Below the pieces are notes generated by a model, which was not told where the DNA came from, did no database searches, and saw nothing but the letters and a program-made list of their open reading frames with translations. From NCBI GenBank assembly GCA_963716175.1, contig OY970296.1, positions 3,136,001 to 3,200,000 on the forward strand: a stretch of 64,000 bases of DNA, given 5' to 3'. Both the position numbers and the translations under genes were made by a program. Positions within the stretch are counted from its first letter, which is position 1. Every line of letters starts with the position of its first letter. Below, piece after piece: positions 53,492 through 64,000 of the stretch. This DNA comes from an uncultured Armatimonadetes bacterium. Its GTDB lineage: Bacteria; Armatimonadota; Hebobacteria; Hebobacterales; Hebobacteraceae.

Positions 53492-53785
53492 GCTTGCCCC
53501 TGCCCTCGCTTGCCTCATCAACTATCCCCCTCCTGCTGTCAGGAAACGGCGCGCCATCCGCCGGCTGTCTCGGGGATGGTGCTCAGGAAGCCGTCGCCGG
53601 TTTGCAGGGCCGCGTTCGCCACGACCCTGGTGTGCTTCTGCTACGGGCTTCATTCCACACTTCCCAGCAGGTTCTGAGACGCTCCCTGGCCGCGTTTGGC
53701 CGCCCAGATAGCCATTCTCCGCTGCTCTGGTTTGTGGAATAAGGCCGAGGGATGGGCCACCGTCCTTGACCCGGGGAGGGAGAGT

Positions 53786-54370
53786 GTGGAGACGCTCCGC
53801 ATTGTCGTGGCGGACGACGAGGAGGCGGTTCGCGCTACCCTGGTAGAGCTGGCCAGTGCCCTCAACCACCAGGTGGTAGGGGAGGCAAGAGATGGCCAGG
53901 AGGCGGTAGCCCTGGCCCGGACCACCTCCCCGGACCTCATCCTGTTGGACATCCGCATGCCTCACCTCGATGGCCTGCAAGCGGCCCACGCCATCAGCGA
54001 AGAGCGACCCGTTCCCATCATCATCGTCACCGCCCATGCCGACCAGGACTTGATAGAGGAGGCGGCCGAGGCCGGTGTGTTCAGCTACCTGCTCAAGCCC
54101 ATCACGCAGCAGCGGCTGGCCGCCGCCATCTCCACCGCCCGCGCCCGCTTCGCCGATCTCCAGCTCCTGCGGTCTGAGGTAGGCGACCTGAAGGGCGCGC
54201 TCGAGGCGCGCAAACTGGTGGAGCGAGCGAAAGGCATCTTGATGCGGGACCTGCGGGTGGGCGAGCAGGAAGCCTATCGCTGGCTCAAGCGCACCAGCAG
54301 CCATCACAACCAGAAGCTCGCCGATATCGCTCGCCGCATCGTCGCCCTGGAGCAGCAGCACCCGCGCTGA
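53786..54370 (+). CDS. REC-ANTAR response regulator (PdtaR/AmiR/NasT type)
   Basis: DDE, LLDIRMP, LKP; RKLVERAKGILM..EAY. Confidence 0.93.
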   Translation: METLRIVVADDEEAVRATLVELASALNHQVVGEARDGQEAVALARTTSPDLILLDIRMPHLDGLQAAHAISEERPVPIIIVTAHADQDLIEEAAEAGVFSYLLKPITQQRLAAAISTARARFADLQLLRSEVGDLKGALEARKLVERAKGILMRDLRVGEQEAYRWLKRTSSHHNQKLADIARRIVALEQQHPR

Positions 54371-54485: not shown

Positions 54486-54695
54486 GTACCAGCCTGACAA
54501 AGACTGGTCCGGGCAGAGCATGAACGTGGACCGCGCGTGGTGGTTCGGTTCGCTTGATGTCTGGTGGCTCAGGCCTTAGACGAGGCGCGCTAGCTAGCGC
54601 GCCTCGTCTGCTTTGGCCGCTTGTCTGCGGTCGGGCCGGGAGAGGAGGTGAGAGAAGGGGATTGGCGCGCAGTATCAGGCCAGGCGTTGTCTGTT

Positions 54696-54771
54696 GGGCA
54701 GGAGCCCCTAGGCTGCCTGAGGCGGCCGGGGTGGCGGCCGGCGAAACAGGCTTAGCCACTTGCCTCCTGCC
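54696..54771 (+). repeat. Structured composite REP-like element, copy 2
   Basis: Homologous to 8780-8856. Confidence 0.7.
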
Positions 54772-54814
54772 GTGGGCGGATCGCTGTTCCAGGCGTGAGG
54801 AGGGAAGGGGAGGT

Positions 54815-55862
54815 ATGATCAAACAGAGGAAGGGCTTCACCCTGATCGAGTTGTTGGTAGTGATCGCGATCATCGCGATCTTGGCGGCGATGCTGTTCCC
54901 CGTGTTCGCACGCGCGCGAGTCGGCGCGCAAGATTCAGTGCCTGTCCAATGTGAAGAACATCGCCATGGCCATCCAGATGTACCTGGCGGACTTCGACCA
55001 GTTCTTCCCGCTCGAGCACGACAGGGCCGCTGCGGACTTCTTCAACGCCTTTGGCGCCAGCCAGGGTCGCTACGACGAGGCCTGGCCGAGCGTGTGCAAC
55101 CATGCTCGCCAGGCGAATCCCTACCTGCGGGAGCCGGTCGTCCTGGATGAGTACACCAGGAACCGTCAGGTGTGGCAGTGCCCGAGTGCGAAGCTGGAGT
55201 ACGGCCCAGGTTACATCTGCCCTATGGGCCGTGGGGGCTGGTGGGTCAACAATTACATTGACCACCCGAACTTCTATGATGACTGGATGGCTCCGCCCTG
55301 CACGATCGCCTACCCCACAGGTTGGGGCGGCAGCGTCACCGACTCCTTCGTGCAAGGAATGTGTCAAGACGCCGAGGCGGGCGGGTTAACCGCCACCGCG
55401 AAGGAGAGTATGTTCGCCGAATCCATCGGGATCAACGACAACATGCACTGGTCGAAGCCCGCTACTGTGAGCGATGCCGCCCACTATATCACGTGCGGCG
55501 AGTGTGGCTCGGGCGGTCTGTGGGGATCGCACTTCCTGGCCTACCCGGATCTGTGTTATGGATCGTCTCCCTGCGGCCTGCCGGACTGTCCTGAGGCCTG
55601 CACCGCAGATTGGGTCAACTGCGCGTGGACCCAGGCCTGCGGGCTGGACACTGAGCATAAGTGGATGTTCTATAGCGACGCGAACTTTCGCAAACAGTAC
55701 ACCCGGCATCTGGGCGGATCCAACGTTGGCTTCCTGGATGGGCACGCGAGGTGGTATCCCGCGGAGACGATCATCTTCCAGAATGGGCCATACGACTGCA
55801 CAGTCTTCGAGGGCCTGGCAACCGGGTGCTGCTGGTATCCGTTGCCGCCGCAGTGCCAGTAG
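54815..55862 (+). CDS. Prepilin-type N-terminal cleavage / H-X9-DG protein 1, frameshifted near 54915
   Basis: MIKQRKG|[27 protein letters not shown]; C-terminal HLGGSNVGFLDGH. Confidence 0.9.
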
Positions 55863-55929: not shown

Positions 55930-56811
55930 TCAGGCCTCTACCGCGGCCTTCCTGCGTTCCCGATACTGGGCTGGGGTGCAGGCGTACTGCTTGACGAAAA
56001 CTCGGTGCAGGTGGCTGTCGTCCACGAAGCCGGCCTCGGCCGCGATCGCGGCCACGGAGCGGTCGGTGTTGAGCAGGCGGTGAGTGGCATAGGATAGGCG
56101 CGCCCGCAGGCCGAAGGCCCCGAAGCTGACCCCCATGGTGTGGCGGAACAAGTCCTGGAAACGCGATCCACTGAGCCTACAGGCCGCTGCCGCCTCCGTC
56201 ACTTCCACCCTGCGCCAAGGCAGGGAATGAACCAGATTGAGGGCCGGCATCAGGCGTGCCAGACTGCTGAGGCGAACCGGTCCGGGCGTCCTGGGCAGCC
56301 TGCTCAGGTCCCAACCGCGGTGCAGCTCGATCAGCAGGCGCAGCAACTCCAGCCGCACCGCGCTTTGCCAGTGCGGCCGCGCCTCCTCGATCTCCCCGCG
56401 CAGCACCTGCCCAATCGCCAGCACCCGCCTGCGCATTTCGGGGGAAGTCACCCGCGGCCGCTGGGCTGGAGGCACCGAGAACAGGGTCAGCCACGGCACC
56501 TCCCCCACCAGCTCCTCTCCGATGAACTCGGGGGCGAAGAGCAGGACCAGGTTGCGAGTACCCGCCGATTTCGCGAACCCGTGGGGCTCCCTGGTGCCGC
56601 AGAGCCACACGTCGCCCGGCCTGCAGGTGAGCTGGTGGTCGCTGAACTCGATCCGCTCCTCTCCAGCCAGCAGCAGGCCCACTTCGACCTCAGAGTGGAG
56701 GTGAATGTCTAGGGGAAGCGGATGCTCGGTGAAGATCGCCTCGGCGTACAGCCCGCGCGCGCCGACCAAAGGTTGCCCCTGCCTGGGCGAAGCGAACGAG
56801 TATTCAGGCAC
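55930..56811 (-). CDS. AraC family regulator with cupin sensor domain
   Basis: HLHSEVE; IAAEAGFVDDSHLHRVF..TPAQYR. Confidence 0.93.
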   Translation of the reverse strand: MPEYSFASPRQGQPLVGARGLYAEAIFTEHPLPLDIHLHSEVEVGLLLAGEERIEFSDHQLTCRPGDVWLCGTREPHGFAKSAGTRNLVLLFAPEFIGEELVGEVPWLTLFSVPPAQRPRVTSPEMRRRVLAIGQVLRGEIEEARPHWQSAVRLELLRLLIELHRGWDLSRLPRTPGPVRLSSLARLMPALNLVHSLPWRRVEVTEAAAACRLSGSRFQDLFRHTMGVSFGAFGLRARLSYATHRLLNTDRSVAAIAAEAGFVDDSHLHRVFVKQYACTPAQYRERRKAAVEA

Positions 56812-57102: not shown

Positions 57103-58155
57103 GTGAGCAAGCGACGGAAGGGCTTCACCCTGATCGAGTTGTTGGTGGTGATCGCGATCATTGCGATCCTGGCGGCAATGCTGTTCCCCGTGTTCGCGCG
57201 GGCGCGGGAATCGGCCCGCAAGATCCAGTGCATGTCCAATGTCAAGAACATCGCCATCGCGGTGCAGATGTACCTCACCGACTATGACAAGTTCCCTGGC
57301 GGTGAGCACGCCGCAGACGCCGAAGCCTACTTCGTGAATGCCCCTGGCGGCGGGCAGGACGCCCCCAGGGAGGACTGCAACCACAAGACTCATGCCAACC
57401 CCTACCTGCGGTGGCCGGTGGTTTTCGACGAGTACGTGAAGAACCGGGATGTCTGGCGCTGTCCCAGCGCCAAGCTGGTGAAGGGCGTTACGGTTGTCAT
57501 CACCGCCCAGCCGGGCTGGCTCCAGTACTGGCAGAACCACGAGGGCCTATGGGGCCGCAGCTCTGACTGCAATGGCGGCGGCCCTTGCGGGGTAGCCTGG
57601 CCCACCGGCTGGGGCGGGAGCATCACCGACTCTATCGTGCAGGGAAGATGCGCCACCGCCGATACCGGTACTTTCGAGCAGAGCATCGGGACCGCTACCG
57701 GTCTGGCGGACATGAAGACCTCTCAGATAGACGATCCCTCCTGGACCGTGATCTGTGGTGATGCCGGCGGCCAGGTGGAGATCTCCAGCCCCACCATGCT
57801 CGCCTTCCCGGATGTCTGCGCGCTGAATGGCTGCGGCACTTGCTGCTACAGCCAGCCGGCCGAGATCGGCTGCTGCGCGGGAGACTGGGCCAACTGCCCC
57901 CTCTCTCCGGAGCAATCCTGCCTGGACTACAACCTGAAGCTCAAGTTCTGGACCGATCCCAATCTCCGCAAGCCGTTCGCTCGCCACCTGGGCGGCGTCA
58001 ACGCCGGCTTCGCCGACGGCCACGCCAGTTGGATGGCGTCTGACGCGATCATTGCCAACGCGCCCAGCTCGAACGACTCCAGCGCTGGCAAGATTCGCGG
58101 CATCGGGTGCGCCTGTCTTCCTCCGCCGCCCGGACAGCTGGGCCCGAACCAGTAG
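57103..58155 (+). CDS. Prepilin-type N-terminal cleavage / H-X9-DG protein 2
   Basis: GGAGG RBS; MSKRRKG|[13 protein letters not shown]; [13 protein letters not shown]. Confidence 0.93.
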
Positions 58156-62714: not shown

Positions 62715-63278
62715 TTATTCCGACACCGACGGAGCAAACCCCTTGGCGATCCCTCGCATCCGCTCTGCCGCCGCCGCCATCTGCGCGGCATCCAGCAACC
62801 GCTCGATCATAGGGAAGACCAGCCTGTTCTCCTTCTCGATATGTCGCGTCAGGAGGTCGAGGCTGGCGCTCACCACCGCCTGCAGCCCTTCCGTGGAGTA
62901 ACCGTTGGAGCTTCCAGCCCGCCCCATGGCCCCGAGCAAGCTCATCATCTCGCGCATGCGACTGCGGAGCAGATGGTGGGCGCTCAGGTCATCATCCGCC
63001 GCCTCCCCAAAGAACTGAGACAGGATGTCAACCGCGGGCGCGCCCTCCGCCACTATCCTTCGCACCTCCGGGTACAGCCCCTCCTCCTCCTTGCGGAAAT
63101 GCAGCAGCAGGCGCTGTCGCATGGCCTCCAGTCGGGCCCGTATCTCTTTCTCTGCTTGCGGCCGGGCCTGCTTGGCCGCGGTCGCGCCTGCGGCCACCGC
63201 CGCCGCCAGCTCGCGCATGCAGGCCAGCCCGGCCTCGTGCTCTTCCCGCAGTTCCCCCGTCGCTGACTTCTCACTCAT
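62715..63278 (-). CDS. Hemerythrin-like (HHE) cation-binding protein
   Basis: EEH, HFRKEEEGLYP, HIEKENRLVFP. Confidence 0.88.
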   Translation of the reverse strand: MSEKSATGELREEHEAGLACMRELAAAVAAGATAAKQARPQAEKEIRARLEAMRQRLLLHFRKEEEGLYPEVRRIVAEGAPAVDILSQFFGEAADDDLSAHHLLRSRMREMMSLLGAMGRAGSSNGYSTEGLQAVVSASLDLLTRHIEKENRLVFPMIERLLDAAQMAAAAERMRGIAKGFAPSVSE

Positions 63279-63389
63279 CGCGCCAGCTCCCCTTGGCAAC
63301 ACCACGCAGCTTGCGCCCCGCCACACGGCCGCCGGGCAAGTCTCCTTTCCTGGGACTCTCTGCTAGTCCTGCTGGCATCTGACGCTCCA

Positions 63390-63458
63390 GACGCGAGACC
63401 GCCCGGCATCTCTGCCGGGCGGCAAGCCTGGATTCACCTTGATCCAGCTGTTGGTGGT
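63390..63458 (-). ncRNA. Candidate antisense sRNA 1 against FTLIELLVV coding sequence
   Basis: -10 TATCCT (63465-63470), seed ACCACCAACAGCTGGATCAAGGTGAA, 10-bp hairpin 63399-63422. Confidence 0.6.
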
Positions 63459-63594
63459 GAGAGTAGGATAGCCCGATTGTGTGTCGGGATCATTAACCCA
63501 ACCGCAAACTTCTGTGAGTTTTCCAGGCAGCATGGGGGTTCGGCCCCGCCGGTGGTCGCCGAAAGCACTGCCCCATGCCAGGCTGAGGGCGTCC

Positions 63595-63662
63595 CAAACG
63601 CGCAGCCGCCCGGCGTGTGCCGGGCGGCCACCGCACTTCACCCTGATCCAGCTGTTGCTGGT
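63595..63662 (-). ncRNA. Candidate antisense sRNA 2
   Basis: -10 TATGAT (63669-63674), seed ACCAGCAACAGCTGGATCAGGGTGAAG, 10-bp hairpin 63605-63628. Confidence 0.6.
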
Positions 63663-63830
63663 GCCATTATCATAGGCCACAGCCATGTCCGTACTGTGAA
63701 GGCAAGACCAACCTTCTGTGAGTTTTTGTGCCATTGAGGGCTAAGTACCATGTAGGATTTCGGTCACATGGCCGACATCCGTGACACAAATGGTAGTACG
63801 CAAACCTGTGGACCTGTGGTATATAGAGTC

Positions 63831-63917
63831 GGCGGTCACCACCAACAGCTCGATCAGACGTATCAACCGCCCGAACAGCTCTGCTAGGGGTCACCCATGC
63901 AGAGCTGTTCTGTTTGT
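63831..63917 (+). ncRNA. Candidate antisense sRNA 3
   Basis: Extended -10 TGG-TATATA (63820-63825), seed GCGGTCACCACCAACAGCTCGATCAG, 12-bp hairpin 63873-63910 followed by TGTTTGT. Confidence 0.65.
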
Positions 63918-64000
63918 GCCAGGTCAGCCGCGGAGGTCGCGAGCAGGCCCCAGGCTAGCTGCCCGGGTTTCTCGCGCTCTCCCGCGCCTCTCCTCCAGGC

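Follow-up and report, generated by a model that had tools for sequence, protein, structure and literature searches.

A putative small RNA gene of an uncultured Armatimonadota bacterium carries a loop antisense to the starts of about 48 pilin-like genes

Positions 63830-63918 of the window look like a real, so far undescribed small regulatory RNA gene of uncultured Armatimonadota. The window is the whole stretch of 64,000 nt that was analysed (C1:3136001-3200000 of a single-contig genome of 4.56 Mb and 66% G+C, labelled G000 below). We consider it probable that the plus strand of this interval encodes an independently transcribed, trans-acting antisense small RNA of about 88 nt, hereafter sRNA 3, whose targets are paralogous prepilin genes. 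A single RNA with an exposed loop antisense to the starts of about 48 near-identical pilin-like genes could control the whole family. The anatomy of the gene, its conservation, its strand and its complementarity are supported computationally, and from these we infer transcription of the plus strand, pairing in vivo and a regulatory outcome; the ends and strand assigned to the predicted RNA derive from sequence signals (Table 1).

No Rfam family (release 15) reached its gathering threshold anywhere in the window, and a search of 63300-64000 with E-values up to 10 returned sub-threshold matches at chance level only, the best being CRISPR-DR9 at 20.9 bits (cut-off 45). In the literature searched, with subscription journals outside its coverage, we found no paper linking small RNAs with DUF1559 genes or with the pilin-like genes of Armatimonadota. 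To our knowledge almost nothing is known about RNA regulation in this phylum, and we know of no function or mode of regulation for the large families of N_methyl+DUF1559 proteins in Armatimonadota, Planctomycetota and their relatives. If our reading is correct, a conserved small RNA directed against the codons of a common signal sequence makes an entire paralog family one regulon, its targets being chosen through the coding sequence of a protein motif. It would then provide a handle on when N_methyl+DUF1559 proteins are made, and a clear example in bacteria of a regulator descended from part of the very gene it targets.

Table 1. Positions in the window of the predicted small RNA genes, the parts of sRNA 3, and target sites in two prepilin-type genes.
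Feature	Position	Strand	Basis
Predicted type-1 small RNA (sRNA 3, unit C), about 88-90 nt	63830..63918	+	R1 score, fold energy, homologues; ends predicted
Promoter-like box TGTGGTATATA (TRTG + G + TATATA), extended -10 type	63815..63825	+	kept in 28 of 28 homologues
Closing stem, 5' arm, GGCGGT	63831..63836	+	pairs with 63866-63871
26-nt seed GCGGTCACCACCAACAGCTCGATCAG, antisense to the LIELLVVIA codons of prepilin-type genes	63832..63857	+	consensus match, invariance
Closing stem, 3' arm, ACCGCC	63866..63871	+	pairs with 63831-63836
Terminator hairpin	63873..63910	+	helix 2, 10 pairs, covariation
U-rich tail TGTTTGTG	63911..63918	+	T-rich tails 3' of the hairpin in homologues
Type-2 small RNA gene B: -10-like TATGATAAT (63666-63674), seed 63637-63663, terminator hairpin 63605-63628	63596..63675	-	
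Type-2 small RNA gene A: -10-like TATCCT (63465-63470), seed 63431-63460, terminator hairpin 63399-63422	63390..63470	-	
Gene 2, prepilin-type N_methyl + DUF1559 (SBP_bac_10) protein	57103..58155	+	PF07963 1.6e-10, PF07596 7.9e-13
Predicted target site, gene 2 mRNA, +28 to +53 from GTG start 57103	57130..57155	+	complementarity, cofolding
Predicted target site, gene 1 mRNA, +28 to +53 from ATG 54815, one C·A mismatch	54842..54867	+	complementarity

The candidate gene lies in an intergenic region (63327-63954) that holds three anti-prepilin units, A, B and C, of which C is sRNA 3. In unit C the prepilin motif is antisense on the plus strand. Units A and B stand in tandem, about 204 nt from one to the next, and their motif is sense on the plus strand and antisense on the minus strand. 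Read on the motif-antisense strand, all three units have the same layout: an A+T-rich -10-like box, a seed within 6-9 nt of it, and a G+C-rich hairpin. Both neighbors are on the minus strand, a hemerythrin-domain gene at 62715-63326 and an ORF for a small membrane protein at 63955-64310. The order of hemerythrin-domain gene, small RNA cluster and membrane-protein ORF is common to G000 and G001 (locus L008); it is not the same in G012, G008 and G013.

Sequences within three mismatches of the 26-nt seed number three in the window, whereas 100 dinucleotide shuffles gave 0.00 on average. Chance is nevertheless the wrong null model for this match, because the segment is plainly homologous to the N-terminal codons of prepilin genes. 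The relevant null is an inert gene fragment, and this was tested by comparative analysis. When 63330-63960 was compared by BLAST with 31 genomes of the class, matches of 67-102 nt spanned box, seed, spacer and hairpin in other genera; a unit resembling A and B often lay some 200-260 nt off in divergent orientation. The alignment of nine genomes has a fixed order: unalignable sequence upstream, T[AG]TGGTAYA, 7-9 variable nucleotides, GGCGGTCACCACCAACAGCTCGATCAG, a variable loop, ACCGCC, a hairpin with compensatory changes and a T-rich tail. Within it, 20 of the 26 seed columns are invariant, compared with 0 of 8 in the adjoining segment of the loop.

A covariance model built from the RNA part alone (R1) scores 88 bits at sRNA 3, which is its sole match in G000. 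It matches 12 of the 15 genomes of the family, representing 9 of 11 genera; the three genomes missed are 74%, 84% and 93% complete. Among the remaining 16 genomes of the class it finds only two matches, both to the antisense strand of genuine pilin genes. A pattern scan of two further sets recovered 12 loci in genome_contigs (8 small-RNA units and 4 true VVTA pilin genes) and 23 in metagenome_contigs (17 small-RNA units and 6 pilin genes); conservation of the seed in rows from these sets is partly ascertainment, since the search pattern fixes most of the seed.

Conservation of the promoter-like box is independent of the query, as TRTGGTAYA is absent from both the covariance model and the search pattern. 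In all 28 distinct homologues TGG[TC]A stands 15-18 nt upstream of GCGGT, preceded by R at -1 in every case and by T at -2 in 24. The TGGTA core is also found 17-27 nt upstream of several tRNA genes in the same genome (as in TGGTAGACT and TGGTATAAT), where TTGACA frequently stands another 17 nt upstream, and on this basis we read the box as a local extended -10 element. In 27 of the 28 homologues the -10 hexamer ends in A or G and not in the usual T. We see no -35 element, and a simple consensus scan of 63200-64000 returned no sigma-70 promoter and no terminator. A sigma-54 reading of TGGTA was dropped, the GC position expected at -12 not being conserved. Genome-wide, T[AG]TGGTA[TC]A occurs 42 times, where a rough estimate gives about 35 by chance; the box alone is therefore no marker of a regulon.

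In the predicted fold, a 6-bp closing stem, GGCGGU/ACCGCC (helix 1), holds the anti-prepilin seed in a loop of 29 nt. Over 28 distinct sequences, 97.3% of 443 cells of the two-helix structure are paired and 5 of 16 pairs are changed on both sides. Pairing in helix 1 reaches 95.7%, its outer pair occurring also as AU and CG, and in G003 the stem differs yet stays complementary (GAUCAC/GUGAUC). Helix 2 is 98.2% paired, 4 of its 10 pairs being changed on both sides; the terminator loop is variable in length and carries large insertions in G012 and G008. Covariation scores 0.244, where shuffles give 0.161 (none of 500 attains 0.244), and slid controls are 32-59% paired, a result that is supportive but modest because the alignment used (A3) was fitted to the model's structure and because helix 1 is nearly invariant.

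The fold energy of sRNA 3 is -37.4 kcal/mol (z = -4.22), and since the other strand folds about as well, folding alone gives no strand. The plus strand is signalled by the box upstream, by the T-rich tail and by strand-specific G:U pairs: many cells in the helices are G:U or U:G, which would be A·C on the opposite strand. A stable 3' hairpin followed by a U-rich tail is present on the RNA strand, though the strict consensus scan did not flag it.

Other classes of element were considered and set aside. A REP or MITE repeat is ruled out by copy number, the type-1 hairpin occurring once and the type-2 hairpin motif twice in 4.56 Mb. A pseudogene fragment does not fit the retention of a non-genic box, closing stem and terminator across 9 of the 11 genera of the family. 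Neither does a cis-antisense RNA fit a locus whose opposite strand is without a conserved gene, the sense ORF there being variable and its start unconserved.

What might such an RNA recognize? The prepilin N-terminal motif occurs at 59 sites in the genome; 56 of these run for at least 50 codons, and 48 have an identical 18-residue start. Short fragments of the motif outside genes number four, three in 63327-63954 and one at C1:10873. The likely targets are the 48 N_methyl+DUF1559 paralogs. The seed equals their consensus at 25 of 26 positions, and contiguous pairing extends over at least 12 nt in 41 of them, at least 17 nt in 23 and at least 26 nt in 11. All genomic sites within three substitutions of the 26-mer are either prepilin N-termini or small-RNA units. 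Cofolding of sRNA 3 with gene 2 predicts a 26-bp duplex with a net gain of -27.1 kcal/mol. Loop, pairing and cofolding together describe an accessible seed that is complementary to mRNAs encoded elsewhere.

A previous, sequence-only reading of this DNA had proposed the pairing with gene 2, as 24 Watson-Crick and two G:U pairs without a mismatch, and our comparison agrees. Gene 1 adds, as it also stated, one mismatch; there GTA replaces GTG, and C faces A. The 26-nt pairing is bounded on each side, by G·G at one end and A·C at the other. The same reading is borne out in its account of the two differences between seed and gene 2: at both, the mRNA has T where the sense equivalent of the seed has C, so that an antisense G faces U, and one of them, were the segment coding, would change ATC to ACC (Ile to Thr).

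From these differences it had been argued that selection acts on RNA pairing with many paralogs and not on protein sequence. Part of this argument stands. A promoter-like box, a stem-loop that presents the seed, a covarying terminator, a U-rich tail and the lack of any conserved ORF start or length all point to a non-coding, plus-strand antisense RNA, probably kept for its pairing with the paralogs. The other part, in which the placement of the G:U wobbles was taken as a sign of selection for wobble tolerance, finds no support in the paralogs, where G:U is not enriched. Over the 26-nt site in all 48, with the fixed wobble excluded, there are 99 deviations from Watson-Crick pairing, 30 of them G:U and 69 mismatches. 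The first G in question, opposite a Leu codon that is CTG or TTG, matches the majority (C in 32 of 48, T in 16). The second, opposite position 2 of ATC, forms G:U with every one of the 48 paralogs; it belongs to the closing stem and is kept because the RNA needs it there. At the other Leu site that varies between C and T the RNA has A, mismatched with 21 of the 48. The RNA base is the majority base of the 48 paralogs at all variable sites, and for two of two transitions to land on G the chance expectation is 1 in 4.

Most seed substitutions among the 12 genomic homologues face synonymous sites of the target codons. Opposite the third position of the Ile codon the RNA has G or A, and in 11 of 11 genomes this base fits the majority codon of the targets. 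It is G in G000 (ATC:ATT 38:9), G011 (27:12), G012 (3:0), G008 (4:0), G007 (5:0) and G004 (2:1), and A in G013 (5:19), G010 (4:13, excluding the small-RNA locus itself), G014 (13:20), G001 (5:11) and G002 (9:11). These 11 matches correspond to perhaps one to three evolutionary events, given that G013, G010 and G014 are of one genus. At other sites, by hand count, the seed does not follow the majority in G013 (4/24), G001 (7/16) or G010 (8/17 and 5/17): in G013 the RNA places A against a Leu codon for which 20 of 24 genes use CTN, and in G010 it has A where 12 of 17 genes carry C. Outside the Ile codon, again by hand count, it does follow the majority in G002 (20/20) and in G000 (27/48). The identity of the seed could come from gene conversion by the paralogs instead of selection on pairing.

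The synonymous sites of the 48 paralogs are themselves unevenly frozen. ATC (motif positions 31-33) is found in all 48 and GTG (28-30) in 45, while the Val codon just before the frozen GTG varies (G in 24, C in 10, A in 10, T in 4) and the other Ile codons are ATT in 9-19 genes. Opposite the 5' end of the type-1 RNA stands the frozen stretch GTGATCGC, which lies within a 10-bp palindrome, GATCGCGATC (e.g., window 57121-57168).

A broader proposal is that inverted 5' fragments of prepilin genes gave rise to a multi-copy small RNA family that reads sorting-signal codons, silences the whole gene family and co-evolves synonymously with its roughly 50 paralogs. We regard this as possible, if somewhat doubtful. 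Co-evolution of the RNA with the paralogs would produce near-frozen ATC and GTG codons amid freely varying neighbors, as well as an RNA base that follows the preferred Ile codon from genome to genome.

The features of the gene suggest how sRNA 3 might work. Transcription would start about 7 nt past the extended -10 box, and the RNA would open with the 6-bp stem and its 29-nt loop and end in an intrinsic terminator. The loop together with the 5' stem arm would pair, over up to 26 contiguous nucleotides, with the codons for L-I-E-L-L-V-V-I-A of the class-III (prepilin-type) signal sequence. Pairing would presumably begin at the loop, whereupon the short stem would open and a long duplex would form, lowering expression of the entire paralog family. 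The most likely route would be cleavage by RNase III and/or a block of early elongation, in either case without Hfq. RNase III is encoded (134 bits). A search for Hfq (PF17209) gave 0 matches in G000, which is 90.85% complete, and the control search was positive in five reference genomes. Duplex-dependent decay or an early elongation block is favored by this combination of a predicted full duplex, RNase III, no detected Hfq and, in genes 1 and 2, a target site downstream of the ribosome-binding site. The regulatory outcome is uncertain, since the site falls outside the region where pairing directly blocks ribosome binding.

Small RNAs that act on pilin or envelope-protein genes provide points of comparison. 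Arp of Acinetobacter baumannii is described as a small RNA, encoded in trans, whose single long and uninterrupted interaction with the 5' portion of a type IV pilin mRNA, first codons included, represses that pilin; by the same account its trans action concerns one pilin gene and its pairing extends over the Shine-Dalgarno sequence (PMC12338739). sRNA 3 shares with it, as so described, trans-encoding and, as predicted, a long contiguous pairing with the 5' part of a pilin-type mRNA. Compared by description and not by sequence, the two differ in that the predicted pairing of sRNA 3 begins at codon 10 and leaves the ribosome-binding site free, and in that sRNA 3 fits about 48 DUF1559 paralogs through common signal-sequence codons in a host where Hfq was not detected. 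PilR of Synechocystis PCC 6803 is described as an antisense RNA that lowers expression of a prepilin gene and is encoded in cis, opposite its sole target pilA11 (PMC5924778). sRNA 3 would likewise be an antisense RNA aimed at prepilin genes; unlike PilR as there portrayed, it is intergenic, faces no gene on the other strand and would have many loci as trans targets.

Envelope-stress small RNAs repress many outer-membrane-protein mRNAs. MicC, RybB and SdsR are described as pairing inside the coding sequence of ompD (PMC4911921). With these RNAs, so far as those descriptions go, sRNA 3 would have in common a pairing site downstream of the initiation region and the targeting of a whole class of envelope proteins. 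They are portrayed as using short, Hfq-dependent seeds on unrelated target sequences, whereas the seed of sRNA 3 is a 26-nt copy of the coding sequence of a protein motif and Hfq was not found.

Several alternatives to a repressor of the paralogs need to be weighed. The RNA may be real and have another role: it might stabilize or activate the mRNAs, titrate another factor, or have DNA as its target, perhaps through R-loops at the 5' ends of the paralogs that promote recombination or homogenization. Such a role would suit a target site that does not overlap the ribosome-binding site, and also the striking homogeneity of the paralogs' N-terminal DNA, which extends to the synonymous sites in ATC and GTG. 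There is a parallel in Neisseria, where a non-coding RNA is described as driving pilin gene conversion (PMC3547852). At the locus, however, no G4 or recombination-associated feature was seen. Long perfect duplexes with RNase III are a classical route to RNA decay, and both the duplex (as predicted) and the enzyme (as encoded) argue for that route here. Even though the direction of regulation is indistinguishable from these sequence data, we judge a role other than repression unlikely. A good deal less probable is that the units are inert 5' fragments of prepilin genes, left by rearrangements and kept similar by recent origin or gene conversion. The seed is obviously homologous to the gene family, the type-2 units retain G-F-T codons, truncated or frameshifted paralogs exist in the genome, and seed substitutions resemble synonymous changes, all of which inert remnants would explain. 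They would not explain a unit with sharp boundaries and unalignable flanks that is kept in 12 of 15 genomes and 9 of 11 genera, nor a box, closing stem and covarying terminator that belong to no prepilin gene. The Ile-to-Thr position, moreover, is kept in nearly all small-RNA copies and found in 0 of 48 genes.

To the remaining two readings we give very little credence. The minus strand holds a 41-aa ORF (63741-63866) with the hydrophobic segment LIELLVVTA, seed substitutions show a coding-like three-base periodicity, and 9 of 28 homologues have an in-frame start three codons upstream. That this ORF is a small protein is nonetheless highly improbable: the nearest in-frame start is missing in 6 of the 28 and elsewhere scattered from 1 to 74 codons upstream, the frame stays open for another 9 to 162 codons after the motif, and the differences in spacer length are not multiples of three. 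With starts, lengths and spacers all unconserved among the 28 homologues, we rejected a coding reading of the minus strand. The conserved residues amount to LIELLVVTA and a YH that is simply the TGGTA box read on the complementary strand, the prepilin cleavage site lacks its G (-1) and F (+1), and the G:U pairs and U-rich tail indicate the other strand. Equally hard to credit is a hairpin that merely terminates the convergent minus-strand gene (63955-64310), with a seed similarity of no function. The hairpin does lie 45 nt past the stop codon of that gene and folds on both strands, but the T-rich tail and the G:U pairs fit on the plus strand only, and box, seed and stem persist in genomes with different neighboring genes. 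A plus-strand antisense RNA remains our preferred reading.

sRNA 3 has relatives in the same genome. The type-2 class comprises units A and B and their homologues in nine or more genomes. Its members share upstream boxes, a TAnnnT hexamer and a seed that extends over the F-T codons; pairing in their terminator reaches 96.7%, and both bases differ in 3 of its 10 pairs. Against all 48 genes, the seeds of A and B are broken by a G·G mismatch, CAG replacing GAG. The upstream boxes, aaTCACrGAAGTTT at about -60 and TTCACAnnnnGGACA at about -30, are found at 63676-63730 and 63480-63525 on the minus strand, with homologues at loci L002, L006, L007 and L021. Their spacing is unfit for a -35 element, and they may be a direct-repeat binding site for a regulator. 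A fourth unit, at C1:10852-10979 on the minus strand (L063, containing the motif fragment at C1:10873), has a perfect antisense seed of 35 nt and a TACTAT box. Its homologues in G001 and G011 have intact terminators, whereas the terminator of the G000 copy looks degraded. The small RNA family probably originated as inverted 5' fragments of prepilin genes.

Some of the paralogs are themselves incomplete. Gene 1 (54815-55862), one of the DUF1559 paralogs, is broken across two frames (ORFs 54554-55150 and 54951-55862); relative to gene 2, one base is missing near 54905-54915, so that it is either a frameshifted pseudogene or the product of an assembly indel. Paralogs that stop early are found at C1:112973 (54 codons), C1:758116 (67 codons) and C1:4059206 (104 codons). 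An ANTAR-type response regulator (53696-54370) lies just upstream of gene 1 and an AraC-family regulator (55930-56811) between genes 1 and 2; either may be a local regulator of the paralogs.

The layout of the unit varies among the metagenome loci. L041, L043 and L059 have no closing stem and a longer seed (GATCGCGGT...), with the terminator directly after it, and L049 and L051 have an additional hairpin between seed and terminator.
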